From Eledone cirrhosa (Eukaryota): a stretch of 64,000 nt of DNA. Under the pieces are notes generated by a model. It did no database searches and was not told where the DNA came from. It worked only from the letters and a program-made list of their open reading frames with translations. The stretch's first letter is position 1, and every line of letters starts with the position of its first letter. The DNA is taken from NCBI GenBank assembly GCA_964016885.1, contig OZ024742.1, positions 282,162,001 through 282,226,000 of the forward strand, read 5' to 3'. This document shows, piece by piece, positions 3,034 through 42,600 of this stretch. Both the position numbers and the translations under genes were made by a program.

Positions 3034-3069
<36 letters not shown>

Positions 3070-3135
3070 TATATACATATATTCATATGTATACATATAT
3101 ACATATTATATACATATATACATATTATATACACA

Positions 3136-3175
<40 letters not shown>

Positions 3176-3300
3176 TATATATATATGTGTGTGTATGTAT
3201 GTATATATATATATATATTATTTATATATATATTATACATATATCATATATATAGATACAAATATAATATATATATACATATAATATATAGGGAGAGATA

Positions 3301-3343
3301 AGTTGACAGCGCTGTTTCGTACTGTTTGGTACTTATCAAAACT
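3301..3343 (-). ncRNA. Type I hammerhead ribozyme motif, U3:A8 core variant
   Basis: Minus strand AGUU-UUGAUAA-GUAC caaaca GUAC-GAAA-CAGCGCUG-UC^-AACU. Confidence 0.75.
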
Positions 3344-3872
3344 CACTACTCTCCCCGTCTGCCGAAAATGATGTGTGTTGGATTCTTATAGAATTCCAGT
3401 AACAATCAGGAACTGATTTTACAGAGCGGTTGCCGGCCCAGCAGAAATTGAAAATTAGAATTGGTGCTCTGAAATAGCGATATATATATGAATGTATATA
3501 TAGTGTATTTTGTAATACACTGTATGCTTAATTAAAAGCATTTTGAAGACCATACGTTATCGTTTAAAAGTAGCGACATTGTCGCCTACTTAAATTTTCG
3601 GCAGACAGAGGAAGATAAGTTGACAGCGCTGTCTCGTACTGTTTGGTACTGATCAAAAGCATTTTGAAGACCATACGCTTTTAATTAAGCATACAGTGTA
3701 TTGCAAAATACACTATATATACATTTATATATATATTGCTATTTCAGAGCACCAATTCTAATTTTCAATTTCTGCTGGGCCGCCGACCACTCTGTAAAAT
3801 CAGTTCCTGGTTGTTACTGGAATTCTATAAGAATTCAACACACATAATTTTCGGCAGACGGGGAAAGTAGTG

Positions 3873-3915
3873 AGTTTTGATAAGTACCAAACAGTACGAA
3901 ACAGCGCTGTCAACT
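3873..3915 (+). ncRNA. Type I hammerhead ribozyme motif, U3:A8 core variant
   Basis: AGTT TTGATAA GTAC caaaca GTAC GAAA CAGCGCTG TC AACT. Stems I and II pair; stem III is palindromic as in minimal PLE HHRs. Confidence 0.75.
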
Positions 3916-4077
3916 TATCTCCCCCTCTCTGCCGAAAATGTAAGTAGACGACAATGTCGCTACTTTAAAACAATAGCGTATGGTCTTCAAAATGCTTTTA
4001 ATTAAGCATACAGTGTATTGCAAAATATACTATATATACATTCATATATATATATCGCTATTTCAGAGCTCCTGTTC

Positions 4078-4152
<75 letters not shown>

Positions 4153-4161
4153 GTTTATATG

Positions 4162-4212
<51 letters not shown>

Positions 4213-4218
<6 letters not shown>

Positions 4219-10841: not shown

Positions 10842-13226
10842 GATGACGTTTCGTTTACATGTATTTAGATATTTATTATTGTGTACCGCCCTGTTACGCG
10901 CGTTTCGCAGAGGACTGGCTCAGGGTCACCCATATTTGTACGAATGCCAATGAGTTCCAGCAGCTCATAAACATATGCAGATTTCTTTAAGAATCGAACT
11001 ACTTTAGCGTCGGTAAAGGCAAGGAGATGTGTAATGTTCACAAACACTAACAAGTGAGAAACGATTGCATTGTCGATTACTTCCCCCTGTTTTTGCCGAG
11101 TTAGGTAAGTGACGATGGTCACAACCATAAAATTCATAGCAAAAGGCCTTCAAATATCTTTCATAAACTTCCTGTATATTATTCAATACATATATAATAT
11201 TTGTATTGGTGCTCCTATATAGCGATATACATATAAATGTACCTATTGTACACTGAATAATATACGGGATGCTTATGAAAGACATGTGAAGGCCTTTCGC
11301 TATGAATTTTGTATGGGCCTATATAGAAGTCATTTCATAACCTTTCGAACAGCAAGGGTTATCCACCTATAAACATTTTTTTTCGAAATTTTTAATTTTT
11401 TAAATTACTTTCTCCATTCTTTTATTCTCCATTTTGTTCACTACCCTATCTTCCACCTTAATATAAGTTATTTCCGGTTACTTTCCCCGGCACATGTTGG
11501 AAAGTTGGTCCAACCCTAAGAAACATGTGTTCTTCTAATAGCTTCGTTGTAGTACTTTTCTTAATAATAATATATTAAAACTCGTCCCAAGGACTTGAGT
11601 TGTTTTATGCCCTGAATATCTCTACTAAGGTATTACTATGTATATATTTTTTTACTACTCTTCCTGTCTTAAAGTTGTCAAATGTTTGTTAAAGGTAACA
11701 CCTTATTTACAAGCTCCCTGAAAAGTTTGGGCACACAAGGATGGTGGGGATCCCACTAATAAAACAAGGAAAGAACGATCTGTTTCGATTCCCTCTCGAT
11801 ACTCAAAATTTTGTTAAAGGAAGGTATTGTGAATAGAAGGGAGAAAATAAATTCAAGTTATTAACAATGGTTCAAATATAATCGAATCGATAATCCAAAA
11901 GCCATGTATTTTCTTTGTGATGGTTCTAATAATTCTTTCTTACATAGGGACAATACCAGTAATTTTGTGGAATAGGACCCGAGTAAATTACTGGTATTTT
12001 ATTTTATCGACCCCAAAAAGATGAACGGCAAAGCTGTTCTTGTATGAACTCAGAACATAAATGCTACAAAGCATTTTGTACGACATTCTAATGATTCTGC
12101 CAATACACCGCCCTGATAGTACTAATAAACTAAATTATTCCTATTTTAAGGCTTTAGGCCATGAATTGCTGACTGATGAGTCCATCATCATAAAATATCA
12201 GCCTCTACCACGCAAACATGCTTTTTTGGGGTTCAAATCTCGCAGACGCTAACTTTATCTTTCCTCCTTTCTGCGTCGATATTGGGTGGATTGGCGTAAT
12301 TAAAGCGTGGGACAAGATGCCTCACAGTATTTTTACCGGTGCTTTGTGTGCTAAGTTCTTGGGTGGTAGACAAAATCCATTGCTCGGTTTAACACTGTCC
12401 CATGACCCTCCGGCTATTTTAGCAGATTCCACTTTTGCATGCATTTTAACCAGGTCTTCGATTTTCTCCATAATTTCCATAGATTTTAGAAGCCAGATCG
12501 CTTCTACGAACAGCGACGCCTGCTTTATATTCAGACCAAATGTTCACCAATCAGAACTGTTTTCGAATAAGCCATTTAATCGGTCAGAGGTGTCTCATCT
12601 CATCGCTGCTGCATATTTTGGTTCTTGAGCATACACAGAGGAATCTAGAAGTGTTTGGGGTCATACCGCTCGAAGAAGGTCAGGGAAGATCCATGTCAAT
12701 TTATGTAGAGTGTGTGAGGTTCATGATGCTGGACTCATTGGAAATTAAGGTGTTCAGAGCCATAATGGAGGAATGTCTTTGCGCCTCAACTAACACACGA
12801 TCAGGCCACCACAAACCAGAAGTAAACGAACTATCTACCTAAAGAGCTCCAGCAGAAAACGTGATCAATGTACCCCCCCCCCCGCTCTCTCTCTCTCTCT
12901 ATGTATATATATCCATCTGTTCTGTGTGTGTGCCCGTGTGTATCTATGCGCACGCAGATACACACATGCTAGAGGAGGGAGAAAAAAGAGAGAAAGAGAA
13001 GGGAGGCTGTGTTAGGAAGAGTCAGTCAGTCAGTAATACACACCTTAATAAGCCAGTAAAAGATTCGATGCCTGCATGGTGCTGAATAAATTATCTTGCT
13101 TAAAAACTGACATTATATCGATAAACGAACATAGACATATAACAACATCAACAGTAATAAGGGGAGAGGGATAAAAAGAAACAACAAATATAAGGAGCAA
13201 CAATAATACCAATAATAACTAGAGAT

Positions 13227-15554: not shown

Positions 15555-16090
15555 CTCTGCCGAAAATTATAGAGGCTCGATTCTTATAGAATTCCAGTAA
15601 TAACCAGGAACTGATTATACAGAGCGATTGCCGGTCCAGCAAAAGTTTAAAATTAGGATTGGTGCTCTGAGATAGCGATGTATATATGAATGTATGTATA
15701 GTATATATGGCAATATACCGTATGTTTAATTAAAAACATTTTGAAGACCTTGCGCTATTATTGCCAGATATAGTATACATACATTCATGTATACATCACT
15801 ATTTCAGAGCACCAATCCTAATTTTTAATTTTTGCTGGACCGGCAATCGCTCTGTATAATCAGTTGTTGATTATTACTGGAATTTTATAAGAATCCAGCC
15901 TCTATAATTTTCGGCTCTGAGGAACACCAACAGCGGGAAACAGATTCTGTCAGCTTCTCACCCTTCCTTTGCCGAAAAAAGAAGTAAGTGGCATAGACAC
16001 TACTTTAAAAATAATAGCGCAAGGTTTTCAAAATGTTTTTAATTAAACATACGGTATATTACCAAATATACTATACATACATTCATATAT
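15555..16090. mobile_element. Diverged family A retrozyme-like repeat, partial copy plus inverted ~300-bp unit; HHR motif at 15913-15955 (+)
   Basis: Homologous to 3355-3560 and its reverse complement. GGCT CTGAGGA acaccaacagcgg GAAA CAGATTCTG TC AGCT: canonical core, stem II degenerate. Confidence 0.7.
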
Positions 16091-18148
16091 ATATATATAT
16101 CCAAAATTAAAATTAAGAGTTGTCATGTCTGAGAGACATGCGCCATATCCACTGTAGAATAAGCTCAAAGATTCCAATGAATAGATCCGAGCATTACATA
16201 TCAACTAGAAATAGATTGACATACATATATATAAAATAAACATATGAAACAATCACAGGGAATAATTTGTAAAGAATGTAAGCACACATAGCTAGGTATG
16301 TAACTAATTAAAGTTTAACTAGAACTTCAAATATAGATACCTTTAAAAATGATTAATCTCCTAAATATTTCTTTAAGTAAGAAATATATTTCACCAATTA
16401 ATCCGTAAATCAAAGTGCGAGGAGGTTCTCGGAAAAGCTCTGGGCGACGACGACGAAATTGAACTGGCCAGTCTATTCCTGAGAACATTCGATCCGGAGA
16501 CAATGAACAACTTCCTGAAACCCCTAGCACGGCATTCCTACAGGGATGGGGGGGCACAGCCGTTTCAAGATAAATTCTTCTATTATTAGTTTGTCATTTA
16601 TCTGTTATCTTTTTACTCGATTTTCTTTCCGTAAACGCTCAATTTCTTTGGTTTTTTATATCGTCCCTTACATGTCGGCACTTGTAGGCAATAAAGAAAT
16701 CATGGTTATTACTGTGGTTTTTGTTATTGTTGTTGTTATAATTAAAAACAAAGGCAAGGCTCGACAAACGCAAATCCATTTAGTTTTTCAATGGGTATAA
16801 CGATAATAAATATCATATTTTAGATAGAATATCTTGTGGTAATGTTTGCCAAAACATGTGAATGAGTCTTTGAATGGCATATGTCAGACGTGGATCACTA
16901 CCCACTATAATCAGGCGATAATGAACTGTTTATAATGAGGTTCTGTTAAATGGATTAAGAAGGGAATTTTCTAATTTACTGTTGAAATTGAAACTCCACT
17001 ATTTTCTGGTGTAAAGTCTGTGTAAAGTTGGGTTTATGTGGATCTTTCTTCTGTTGCACTTGGCTGAGCAATCAAAAATGTTTATGTTTACCGGATGAGT
17101 AGTGTAAAACATACATACATACATACATACATACATACATACATACATACATACATACATACATACATACATACATACATTTACACTATATGTGCGTGTG
17201 TGTATGTTTGCACATATACAACACCTTTCGCGGTGAATATATACATACGCACTAACAGTAAATACCGACCATATATGCTGCCGTCTAAGTGTTCAAGACC
17301 TTAAGAACTGATACCCTACTAGGTTTACAGTTTCATTTGTGCCACTTTTTTAACAAGGAATGCTAAGAATGACATTTCGTGTGAAAGGAACCAACCTTCG
17401 TCTCAACCAAAAAGAAAAATATTACACAGGACATGCTATGTGAAATGTTTTAACTGTGGAATGGAAACTACATCACAAACACGGCTTTTCCAGCAGCTCA
17501 CTAATCTGTTCATAGTGTTCGAATCAACCGCTAACACAATCTCCAAAATATAAGAAGAACATTTTAGATATTGTATTGCTAAATACACTGTGTCTGAAAA
17601 TACGTTGCGATGCTCACGGCTGGAGCCTCTCAGGTCACTGATCTGGTTAATCAAAATAGATTTGGGGCTGAACAACTACATAAACTTCTGCTACTATTAG
17701 TAATTATTTCTGAATTTGGCACAAGGCCAGCATTTTATGGCAAGGGGAACTTGATTATGTCGACAACAGTACTTAACTGCGGTACTTTTATTTTATCGAC
17801 TCCAGACGGATGAATGGCGGGATTTCACCTGAGAAAGTAAAAAGGCCGGAAGAAATACCAAAGGTAATTTTGCCCAACATCCTCATGACTGCCAATTTAC
17901 AACCTTAATATACTATAGTTGTTCGATCAATGGAACAGGCTGTTCATAAAATTAACATGCAAGTGACTGAGCATGCATAGACATATGTACTGTTAATGCA
18001 ACCTTGTCACATATAGTGTGTTACGGACAATGCTTGATAATTACGTAAAAGGTATATACATTTTGGAATATTCAGCCACTTACATTATAAGATGGAGTAT
18101 ACCTGTAATTCAAAGTTTCATCACACAGATTCTGTCATGTTAAGGGTG

Positions 18149-21013: not shown

Positions 21014-21048
21014 CCTTAATTTTCGAGATAATATCTCTTCTTCAGAGG
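21014..21048 (-). ncRNA. Minimal hammerhead ribozyme motif in PLE 3' pseudo-LTR
   Basis: Minus strand CCU-CUGAAGA-A GAGAU auu AUCUC-GAAA-AU-UA^-AGG, sense to the PLE ORF. Confidence 0.65.
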
Positions 21049-21458: not shown

Positions 21459-22140
21459 TCAAGTTATAAATTGGGTGTTGAGTTCTAGTCTATTATTGAT
21501 TGGTGGTTGTGTTTTGTCTATAATTAGTGCTTCCTTAATTCTAAGATTGCCGAGGTTTCTTTCCTTAGTTTCTATCTTAACTGTTATGGTTTTGTCGGTG
21601 TTTTTGCATTTAACTAGGTGTTTCTTAAATGAAAAAGCGTTAGTATTGAGGTGTTTATTTATTCTTATGTGGAGTGGTCTGGTGGTGCTACCTACGTAGA
21701 AGTTGCTGCATTTGTCACACTCTAGTCTGTATACGACGTAAGCCTGGTGGCATAGGTCTGTGTTGTTGATGGGGCAGTTGGCTAGCCTGCAGCAGTTGTC
21801 ATGTCTGGTGGAGTGTCTTTTGGTTAGCTGTCCGCGTAGAGAAGGACCTGAGTGGGCCAGTTGGATATCTAGTCCCTCTCGTCTGATAGCTCTGCGGATG
21901 GCTGTTGTTGTTTCGTCACTGAAGTGTGGGAGCTTCAGGAAGCAAGTGTTAGTGCCTTGGGTGTGGTGTCCTCTTTTCTTTCTGGCACGGTTTGTGGTGG
22001 ATGTCGTGTATCCGTTGAGTTTGAGTACTTCCAGGAAATGTGTGGTGTGTGTGTCTCGGTCTCTAGCGTCGGTGCATTTGTTCCGATACGTGTAGTTCGT
22101 TCCTTATGTATCCGAACTTAGCGCCAGCTGGGAGGGCCGA
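21459..22140 (-). pseudogene. PLE RT C-terminus + GIY-YIG endonuclease (not in the ORF track)
   Basis: Manual translation: LKLNGY...FLKLPHFS..TTTAIRRAIRREGLDIQLAHSGPSLR...CPI....CHQAYVVYRLECDKCSNFYVGSTTRPLHIRINKH...LRIKEALII...QPPIN. Homologous to ORF 51597-52070. Confidence 0.85.
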
Positions 22141-22478
22141 TCTGAAATGTTCGTACATTTAAATAAATCTAAGGTAAAAGACTAATTTTCAACAATATAT
22201 TTTGCATTTGCATTCTTTATTATATGGCCATGCCTGCATTGTTTTGGCTTTATTATACATATACAAACGTTTATACCTCATTGCACAATGCTTCAAGTGA
22301 ACTATAACCTCCTCCATATATATATATATAGATTTTGAGTTTATGTTCGTTGTATACCAACACCTCAGTATGCAGGCTGCAGCACTCGACGAAGTGCGCA
22401 GGTTGGTTTGGTTACTCCGGAGTAGTGTAAAATAAAGTTAAATAAAAGTCAAATGATTAAAATTTAGCTTCGTTTATT

Positions 22479-22533
22479 ACTGCTATATATATTTCAGTGA
22501 CAGTAATCTTTGGCTGTGACCTCTTCAGGCAGT
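22479..22533 (-). ncRNA. Type I hammerhead ribozyme motif (same family as 32402/32673)
   Basis: Minus strand ACUGC-CUGAAGA-GGUCACAG...CUGUCACU-GAAA-UAUAUA-UA^-GCAGU. 22330-22650 is homologous to the 32345-32880 element. Confidence 0.75.
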
Positions 22534-36567: not shown

Positions 36568-36749
36568 TTGTTATACTTGGGGAGGGTCATATTTGTGTAA
36601 TATTGCCAGAATTAATAACAGAACACACTCACTGTTTGGTTGGTTTTCGCTTTTCGCTTCTGTGTCTTTTATATAAACAAGTATAACAATATTTGTTTCG
36701 ATACACGATTTCATATCAAAAACCTCGCAAAACTAATTCATCGCCGTTA

Positions 36750-37034
36750 TATATATATGAATGTATGTATAGTATATTTGGCAATATACCGTATGTTTGA
36801 TTAAAAACATTTAGAAGACCATTCGCTATCAGTTTTAAAGTAGTGACTATGTCACTTATTTACTTATTTTCGGCAAAGGCTGGAAGAGAGGCTAACAGCT
36901 GGTTCTCGCTGGTTGGCGTTTATCAAAGCCCCGCACTCACCTACCTTTGCCGAAAATTATACAGTAAAAGCTGGATTCTTATAAAATTCCACTAATAATC
37001 AGGAGCTGATTACACACAGCGATTGCCGGTCCGG

Positions 37035-37035
<1 letters not shown>
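36750..37035 (-). mobile_element. Family A copy, circularly permuted; HHR-like motif at 36890-36930
   Basis: Segment order is rotated relative to 3293-3617. Minus strand GGCU-UUGAUAA-A CGC caacca GCG A-GAAC-CAGCUG-UU-AGCC (A15.1 altered). Confidence 0.65.
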
Positions 37036-37089
<54 letters not shown>

Positions 37090-39675: not shown

Positions 39676-42600
39676 CGCAAACACAACCAAAACAAGAACA
39701 ACAAAGCAACCTGCAAGCACAGTCCCACCCAACCCTACTCCACCTAAAACCACTGCAAAAACACCCACAAACACAACAGCTCCCCAAAACATACCCCTTC
39801 CAAATAACACAGACACTACAACGGACGAGGCCCCCACATCATCACCAAGTGATGATGAGGGAGAGCCTCTCCGTTCGAAAAGAAAGAAGAAAAGACACCA
39901 CAAGAACAAAAAAACAACAAACATCACTACAAACATACAACCACCAACACAAACAACACAAACATTACAAATAAAAACCCCGTCCCGAAAACAAAACCAC
40001 GACATCACTCCAAACACAAACACCTACTACAAAACGAAAGCTCCCACAAGAACAACAGACAAAAACCATCGCAACACAACAAGAACATTACACATACATA
40101 AACAGTAAAAATAAAACTTTAAAGGAGGTCATCTCCAACGACCCTTCGGTGAAAACCGAAGGGAAAACTTTTTCGAACTGTGCAGACAAACCTAATTTAA
40201 AAATGATTAGGGTCCCTACGGACACCTATAAGTTTTTAAAGGTAAACTTTCCTAAGGACGTGGGTAATCCTTGTGTTAAATCCATTAACCGCGTCCTTTA
40301 AAAAAAGTTTCCACACCCTCACCTCAGACACCCCCACCCCACCAAACATCTCCGCCCCCACCCCGCCGGAAACCACCACCCACCAGACAACTCCTCTAAC
40401 ATCCCCATGGAAACCGTGCGGCCTGATCCCCGGGAGACGAAGAGGTGAGTGTTTTCTTCTCCTCTTTTAACTTTTCAGAACCAACATGGCCAATATAAGA
40501 GTTGGGTGTGTGAATGTACGCGGCCTGGGGATGCCCTCGAAACAGGGCAAACTCTTAAACGACCTCAGGTCGCACAGTATGGATGTAGTAGCCATTTGCG
40601 AATCCAGGATCCACAGCGAGCGACAGCTGGCCCCCATCTTCGATGACTTTGAGATCTACGCATCTCTCTGTCAGCCGGGGGTGGGGGCAGGGTTGCCGTT
40701 TTGCTGCGGAAACACCTGGGCCTCGTAACACAGACGGTACATCTGGACCCGGAGGGTCAACTGGTGGTCCTAGACGTTGACAGTAGTGAAGGTGGAGGCT
40801 TCAGGCTGGTGGCCGCATATGCCCCATCCGGGACACCGCGGCCAGACTTCTTCAAACGTCTAGAGACTTTTCTGGGAACGTCCGCTCCTTGCTTTTAGTG
40901 GGGGACTGGAATGGATTCCTAGATGCACGTTGGGACTATGTGGGAGCATGTCCCGATAAAGGGGGGTGTAACATCCTCAAACAGTTAATCGGCCGATTTG
41001 ACCTGGCCGATAGATATCGACTATATTTTCCGACTGTGCCACTGTGGACGTGGACTAATCGTAGCGGAACATCTAGATCGTACCTAGATAGGGTTCTAGT
41101 TAGAAATAAGGATAGGGACATGTTAAGCTGTCCACAAATGTTCATGGTTGCCTATTCAGATCACAAACTAGTGACCTGCATGGTCAACCTTGATAGAACC
41201 CATAGACAAGGACCCGGCTACTGGAAGCTGAACTTGTCGTTACCGAAATGCAAAGCCTACAGTAGACGGATTAGCAATTTAGTTAAACAGCACTTGACAG
41301 GGGCCATTGTCGACAACAGATGGTGGTACTCTCTCAAGAGGGCAGTTAGATTAGACTCGTTAGTTTTTAGTAAAGAATTACCGTTAGATAGAAATAGAAC
41401 TGAGAAAGAACTGGTAGATTAAGTAGAAGAGGCAATTAGAAGCGGCAACTTAGCCAGCGTGCTAGCAACCAGAACGGCCTTGGACCAGTTCTTCGAGGCA
41501 AAGCATGAAGTCTGCGTTGTCAGAAGAAAAATACGTGCTCTGGGAAACGAGGGAGCCAAAGTTGTTAGCTGGGCCCGGGTGACGGAGGCAAAAAGTGGCA
41601 ACAAGTCCACGATTCGGTCTTTGAAGTACCAAAACGGACGCGTGATACGTGAGCCGAAGCAGATGTGTGCGGCCCTTTCAGCAGCACATTGCTCAGCTGT
41701 TCGGGCAGGGCGGCGCGCCGGGAGGGGCTATGGATTTCGGTCAATACCTCGACGGCCTACTGCGACTCTCGGATAGCAAGGCAAAGTTCTGCGAAAAGTC
41801 GATTTCAGCCGCTGAGATAGGGGTCGCGTTGAGCCAATACGGCAAACACAAATCTCCAGGTCTCGACGGTCTACCCTACGAATTTTACGTAGCAATGCCG
41901 GACTTATTCTCCGGTCTCCTGGAAGCGGTCTACTGCAAGTGGCAACCGAACGGGAGAATTCCTAGTTCTGTGACCGGGGGAGTAGTCACACCAGTCAGGA
42001 AGGACGAGAATAAGGGGGATGACATAGGCATCTTCCGGCCCATAACTCTGCTAAACACAGAGTTACAGATTTTGGCCAAGGTGTTGGAAAAGAGGCTGGC
42101 GCTTGTCGTCGGGAACCTCCATTCGACAAGGATGCCTCCTCTCCTCCCTTCTGTACGTATTGACTCTCGAGCCACTACTGCGGAAGTTGGAGCTATTGCA
42201 GGGCATCCCTCTGGAACCGGGACTGCGGAAAGCGGCGTCGGCCTACGCAGACGACGTGACAGTAATGGTGTCGAGCGCCTCGCAAATCGAGTAAGTCGGC
42301 ACCTTACTGAAGGAATACGAAAGGTTCACAGGAGCGAAGCTGAACCGGGACAAGTCCATCGGTTTGCAACTCGGATCGTGGAGAGGCAGACCGATGCCTT
42401 CCGATGGCGTCGTCGGACGCTGGACGGAAGGACCAGTAAAGCTGCTCGGGGTCTGGTTTGGTCCGGACCTCCAGGTGGAGAAGAACTGAAACGAGGTGTC
42501 GGCCAAGGTGTTTGCACTCTCCCAGAAGTGGGCCGAGTGCAAACTATCCTTGAAAGGTCGAGCGGAGGTGGCGAACACTTTTATAGTGTCCGCCATCTAC

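Follow-up and report, generated by a model that had tools for sequence, protein, structure and literature searches.

At positions 3873-3915 of the window, the 64,000-nt stretch of the Eledone cirrhosa genome analysed here, lies a hammerhead motif with U3:A8 in its core. The Watson-Crick pair C3-G8 is established for hammerheads (PMC3884650), as the first-pass annotation stated. The question raised by the locus is whether U3:A8 is a compensatory state, kept by selection for cleavage. Judged from sequence, the motif is probably one copy of a non-coding repeat of about 315 nt, which carries U3:A8 or C3:G8 according to subfamily and in which the pair would have switched at least twice, since only self-cleaving master copies would keep spreading.

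Hammerhead copies and insertions in the window

The genome is 3.0 Gb in size and rich in microsatellites. Features of the window are listed in Table 1. The hammerhead copies belong to one repeat family (71-100% identity), as the first-pass annotation had proposed for those at 3301, 3873, 15917 and 36890; it had also read the four cores correctly. Its list omitted a fifth copy, at 3618. The copies at 3301 and 3873, which it counted separately, are the two inverted arms of a single insertion, identical at 235 of 246 aligned bases. The left arm stops about 12 nt past the predicted cut site of the 3301 hammerhead. No ORF of at least 100 aa is found in 3302-4082.

Table 1. Coordinates of repeat-family features in the window.
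Feature	Position	Strand	Remarks
Intact type I hammerhead, subfamily A, U3:A8	3873..3915	+	pattern match
Stem I of 3873 hammerhead, AGUU/AACU	3871-3876/3912-3917	+	6 bp including extension
Core of 3873 hammerhead, U3-U4-G5-A6-U7-A8-A9 (UUGAUAA)	3877-3883	+	
Stem II of 3873 hammerhead, GUAC/GUAC, 6-nt loop	3884-3897	+	G10.1-C11.1
GAAA of 3873 hammerhead	3898-3901	+	
Palindromic stem III of 3873 hammerhead, then UC	3901-3910	+	
Predicted cut site of 3873 hammerhead	after C17 (3911)	+	
Extended stem I of 3873 hammerhead (outer helix and internal loop 1)	3847..3939	+	closes the ribozyme; fold z=-5.9
Full 315-nt repeat unit, right arm	3680..3994	+	
Partial second unit after the right-arm full unit	3997-4082	+	
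Inverted left arm of 3873 insertion, two partial units	3291..3658	-	
Second intact U3:A8 hammerhead, identical to 3873-3915	3301..3343	-	core UUGAUAA 3333-3339
5'-truncated, decayed hammerhead at arm junction, U3:C8, GAGA	3618..3659	-	core 3650-3656
(TA)n tract, left end of 3873 insertion	3036..3290		
(TA)n tract, right end of 3873 insertion	4082..4215		
Old family fragment without hammerhead	11196..11310	-	
Two-armed subfamily B insertion, C3:G8	15556..16094		
Subfamily B hammerhead, core CUGAGGA 15917-15923	15913-15955	+	stem II broken, loop 1 deleted
Subfamily C copy	36745..37036	-	
Subfamily C hammerhead, U3:A8, core UUGAUAA 36920-36926	36890-36930	-	A10.1·A11.1; GAAC

Among family copies, the strict hammerhead descriptor is passed across the 64-kb window by 3301 and 3873 alone. 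The third strict match in the window, at 41989, is weak and unrelated to the family. The type I core with a Watson-Crick 3:8 pair is likewise present at 3873 and 3301; the copies at 36890 (GAAC) and 3618 depart from it. The 15917 copy has stem I GGCU/AGCU and stem II ACAC/GCGG with two of four pairs broken; its loop 1 is lost by deletion. Stems GGCU/AGCC and CGC/GCG, attributed in the first-pass annotation to 15917, belong to 36890, itself a U3:A8 copy with A15.1 lost (GAAC for GAAA) and A10.1·A11.1, so that stems I and II do not covary with the 3:8 state within the window. As the strongest internal evidence for function, the copies of the window are weak: 3301 and 3873 are one insertion, the stems were misassigned, and two of the four copies (15917 and 36890) are damaged, leaving at most one switch.

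The repeat unit and its fold

The unit is 315-322 nt long, non-coding, and occurs in tandem and inverted arrangement. DNA searches were run with three window types, and the best 40 of 2000-2800 candidates were scored for each. One series (locus L157, G000:C1:82389500-82397500) holds 16 full head-to-tail units of about 318 nt with nothing else between them, about 76-82% identical to the window unit. In the tree these units are not an identical set, and the array is therefore read as old or heterogeneous. Among 55 pairs of hammerheads less than 700 nt apart, 41 lie on opposite strands, 39 of them divergent and inverted. Family blocks measure 189-1345 bp (median 494) in 154 loci, some overlapping. 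A simple repeat lies near at least one end in 132 of the 154, a figure without control in a genome itself rich in microsatellites. An internal (TA) tract is recognised in 94 of 200 copies: 60 end there, 29 end 20-60 nt beyond, as with the 30-40-bp tail of Penelope, and 5 continue into the next unit. With the 15917 query, many subfamily B copies were retrieved in which the outer stem I has lost differing parts of its 5' strand; these deletions are partly an effect of the query's own deletion and possibly of reverse transcriptase skipping across the hairpin. GTAAGT stands just past the extended stem I in most subfamilies, with TTTCAG about 125 nt on (window 3940-4068, +), which may mark a spliceosomal intron within the unit, like that of Penelope pseudo-LTRs. 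Three contig sets from a single sample show no spliced form and are uninformative on splicing, expression or cut site.

With a tandem unit within the 150-450-nt range, one type I hammerhead per unit and at least 2875 motifs, the family is a non-coding, non-autonomous repeat with the features of a non-LTR retrozyme. Its partial tandems, inverted 5'-truncated arm and microsatellite targets follow the layout of Penelope pseudo-LTRs. Divergent inverted arms are the layout of Penelope-like insertions (PMC8557442). Fragments of Penelope-type RT and GIY-YIG occur commonly both in the window and in sampled loci; no RT or GIY-YIG ORF is joined to the unit or stands at a fixed place beside copies (154 loci, a sample of copies). 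In a shared-flank test across loci, any signal was drowned by other repeats. Decayed Neptune-like Penelope elements with RT, Zn-finger linker and GIY-YIG lie at L155:3937-5960 and L156:4496-5770, with retrozyme copies in (TA)n downstream.

Three helices surround the core, open at stem I, in hammerhead layout. In an alignment of 31 hand-picked and related rows, 92.9% of cells are paired, against 35-47% in slid controls. Both-sided changes occur in 13 of its 26 named pairs, including stems I and II and the outer stem I helix (5 of 11 pairs); stem III is invariant. An internal loop GU(A/G)(C/G) facing UCUC and a loop 2 CAANNA, candidates for a loop 1/loop 2 tertiary contact, are kept in all six subfamilies. 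These loops presumably resemble the Schistosoma motif. Position 10.1-11.1 is G-C in A and D, A-U or U·U in B, E and F, and A·A in C; it is unpaired in 11 of the 31 rows. Several subfamilies have a short, self-complementary stem III (duplex -11 to -20 kcal/mol; window copy -16.9, D -20.1, E -6.9). For a single copy, the hammerhead fold is 4.9 kcal/mol less stable than the MFE structure. Compared with 40 crude shuffles, the circular unit has a fold z of about -5.5, in part owing to its AT palindromes.

Rfam gives no hammerhead match in 3280-4080, and microsatellite-driven miRNA matches only in the whole window, among 150 of 310 matches listed. None of 10 family loci reaches a gathering score; only two C3:G8 copies among them match RF02275 at 25.1 and 18.1 bits (gathering 52).

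Metazoan type I hammerheads are described as cleaving as dimers (PMC4209133; PMC6765202). In the proposed cycle, tandem units would be read through into one transcript that cleaves itself after C17. Cleavage would likely proceed as a dimer through the palindromic stem III, given that this stem is short and self-complementary and that the single-copy fold is not the most stable one. The products would be unit-length, possibly circular RNA. A Penelope-type RT/GIY-YIG protein would reverse transcribe this RNA in trans into (TA)n sites and leave two-armed insertions; we infer Penelope-type reverse transcription of the family RNA from the insertion layout alone. A single change at position 3 or 8 would cripple a master, and new subfamilies would be founded only by the compensated double change.

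Probable switching and maintenance of the 3:8 pair

The exact family pattern, with positions 3 and 8 left free, was run genome-wide beside a reversed control. It gives 2875 matches against 0 for the control, and chance is thereby excluded. These exact-match counts are lower bounds, and the copies are not independent events: C3:G8 1314, U3:A8 1407, U3:G8 34, C3:A8 45, other 75. U3:A8 thus stands in about half of the copies. Positions 3 and 8 do not vary independently: 2721 of 2800 pyrimidine/purine combinations are paired, about half being expected, and the 79 single transitions compare with about 1390 mismatches under independence. Among the first 100 of 400 rows listed, U3:G8 and C3:A8 are similarly rare. 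All 154 off-pair changes amount to 2.7% per site, equal to background decay, so that mismatched cores look like on-site mutations of dead copies. The C3:A8 copies of subfamily E were considered as an amplified intermediate lineage; this found no support, since they are scattered in the tree. By these counts, together with the flank-only tree, the pair is kept and the switch is compensatory.

Of 218 extracted copies, 111 intact ones enter the main maximum-likelihood tree, whose alignment leaves out every ribozyme column. This flank-only tree requires two changes of 3:8 state. Its ladder, with bootstrap not fully settled, runs from A+D (U3:A8, 100/96) through the C3:G8 subfamilies F, B and E; C (U3:A8, 96/94) is nested in E. 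Flanks of C differ from E by 4.2% and from A/D by 17-18%. A single U3:A8 clade, a grouping chosen after the tree was seen, is rejected by the AU test (p=0.00125; 79 of the 111 tree rows). A second tree (90 rows of 110 intact copies, with more E and C) gives the same placements with a poorly resolved E/C region and three changes, the third owing to two early C-type copies that are not resolved; no clade in it is formed by a mismatched 3:8 subfamily. A first tree (139 rows, 9 changes) was discarded because flanks had been joined before alignment, and this unanchored alignment misaligned truncated units.

When the majority sequences of the six subfamilies are compared, 60 of 264 flank columns differ, but in the 12-position core just 3 and 8 change, and jointly; this invariance is inflated, because a core-fixing pattern had served to find three of the six. 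For a matched second transition to fall on both of two short branches, each 0.022 long, the chance is roughly 2e-4. U3:A8 likely arose at least twice within one repeat family. On the tree, G10.1-C11.1 arises shortly ahead of the A/D switch; in C, by contrast, U3:A8 goes together with A·A. The chances are evenly balanced that separate C3:G8/U3:A8 double substitutions occurred at least twice in this one retrozyme family, once with G10.1-C11.1 and once with A10.1·A11.1; C would then be an active hammerhead with a core combination not found in the literature compared. Subfamily C has 169 exact matches with A10.1·A11.1, a mismatch that fits poorly with strong selection for rapid cleavage, and may be a weak or partner-rescued ribozyme.

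Decay was compared in copies extracted by BLAST: of 117 distinct ones, the 110 that belong to A, B and C were used, and 7 of other subfamilies were set aside. Departure from the subfamily majority is 36/1270 (2.8%) in the core and 382/14938 (2.6%) in the flanks (p=0.52). All 12 core positions are intact in 27/37, 23/40 and 24/33 copies of A, B and C. An earlier test (core 17/688, flank 607/14832, p=0.036) was dropped, as its copies had been pre-filtered on the core. Core and flank decay alike, which places selection on replicating masters and not on inserted copies: by their substitution pattern, the inserted copies are neutral fossils, and the signal of selection lies on branches between masters. 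This points to selection having preserved cleavage in those copies that went on to spread. The first-pass view that selection maintains catalysis thus fits past replicating lineages, in which the 3:8 change appears compensatory, and fails for the motifs of the window, which decay neutrally.

Alternative origins and known systems

U3:A8 could have a single origin in A/D and have been moved into E by a short template switch or gene conversion over positions 3-8, giving C. The stretch from stem I through A9 is common to C and D, only 6 nt separate positions 3 and 8, and different subfamilies occur within single loci (e.g. L007, L055 and L057). Yet the rest of C (loop 1, stem I, stem II, loop 2 length, short stem III, and flanks at the distance given above) matches E, which confines the transferred tract to 6 to ~11 nt without other trace; such a transfer is unlikely, and fixation of a paired state would still imply that the pair matters. 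The unit might instead be the pseudo-LTR of an autonomous Penelope-like element and its copies 5'-truncated stubs, with no separate retrozyme RNA. Partial tandems, inverted arms and (TA)n ends are Penelope features, GTAAGT...TTTCAG after the ribozyme resembles a pseudo-LTR intron, and GIY-YIG and RT fragments are frequent in window and loci. This is nonetheless improbable in view of the 16-unit array without ORF and the short family blocks; moreover, the two Neptune-like ORFs found upstream of copies (L096 and L139), tried as partners, are cut off from them by unrelated 3' sequence and (TA)n.

Covariation at 3:8 might also be a founder artefact, two mutations having hitch-hiked on masters whose ribozyme, above all in C, need not cut. 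Such hitch-hiking would agree with copy counts that are not independent events, with neutral decay of inserted copies and with the amplification of C despite A10.1·A11.1. In vitro cleavage by Penelope hammerheads is reported to be poor (PMC4209133), and Naiad elements spread although they lack canonical hammerheads (PMC8557442). It is made very improbable by the low chance of a matched second transition on two such short branches, by the constancy of the ten other core positions between subfamilies, and by the double changes in stems I and II. Repeated compensatory switching in self-cleaving masters is the reading preferred here.

Natural U3-A8 hammerheads active in vitro, and the U10.1-U11.1 mismatch, were described in 2011 (Perreault et al., PMC3088659); about 1,300 U3-A8 motifs were reported from Schistosoma Penelope-like elements in 2014 (PMC4209133). 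U3:A8 itself is thus already published; the repeated switch and the amplified U3:A8/A10.1·A11.1 lineage appear to be new. A10.1·A11.1 combined with U3:A8 was not found in the consulted portion of PMC3088659 or in the other literature compared; repeated 3:8 switching within one hammerhead family was not found in the main texts of the literature searched.

Metazoan non-LTR retrozymes (Cervera and de la Pena 2020, PMC7229834; Li, Clavereau and Pollet, preprint 10.64898/2026.07.22.740005) are, as far as the consulted portions describe them, alike in their non-coding tandem unit of 150-450 bp with one type I hammerhead each, their thousands of dispersed mono- to multimers, and the presence of Penelope-like elements in the same genome. 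The present family differs in that about half of its copies carry U3:A8 and two-armed inverted insertions in (TA)n are frequent; it is known here from DNA alone. Cercyon elements of Schistosoma mansoni (Cervera and de la Pena 2014, PMC4209133) share the U3-A8 swap with both core states in one genome, and their minimal hammerheads share the palindromic stem III and opposite-strand pairs 100-700 bp apart. In contrast to Cercyon as described there, the present motif is full-length (6-bp stem I, 4-bp stem II, loop 1/loop 2, no bulge after A9), the unit is ORF-less, and the switch can be placed twice on one tree. The U10.1-U11.1 mismatch of Perreault et al. 2011 (PMC3088659) occurs also in the present family; the examples given there are scattered.

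Within a single genome the family offers a series of subfamilies arranged as a ladder, with the two core states in roughly equal copy number and probably two switches or more. It would lend independent evolutionary support to a dependence of retrozyme spread on cleavage, a link proposed, not shown in vivo, in the consulted portions of the literature compared. Tests of compensatory evolution could draw on its subfamilies as ready-made natural constructs. About half of a family like this would escape descriptors fixed on CUGANGA. If at least two separate double substitutions did occur, the family would be a dated natural series of base-pair evolution in a catalytic core, across the C3:G8/U3:A8 fitness valley.

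Other hammerhead-like motifs were observed. A Hammerhead_1 (RF00163) match of 29.1 bits (gathering 34) lies outside the family copy at L197:43-87 (+). A second, unrelated hammerhead-like family has two similar copies in the window, at 22528 (-) and 32451 (-), with CUGAAGA core, long stem II, GAAA and AU-palindromic stem III. A minimal hammerhead-like motif at 21045 (-), downstream of the GIY-YIG ORF 21459-22103 (-), has a bulge after A9, a 5-bp stem II and almost no stem III; a Penelope-like fragment probably contains it, within its 3' pseudo-LTR. Some 90 nt of the region are repeated near 22150-22270.
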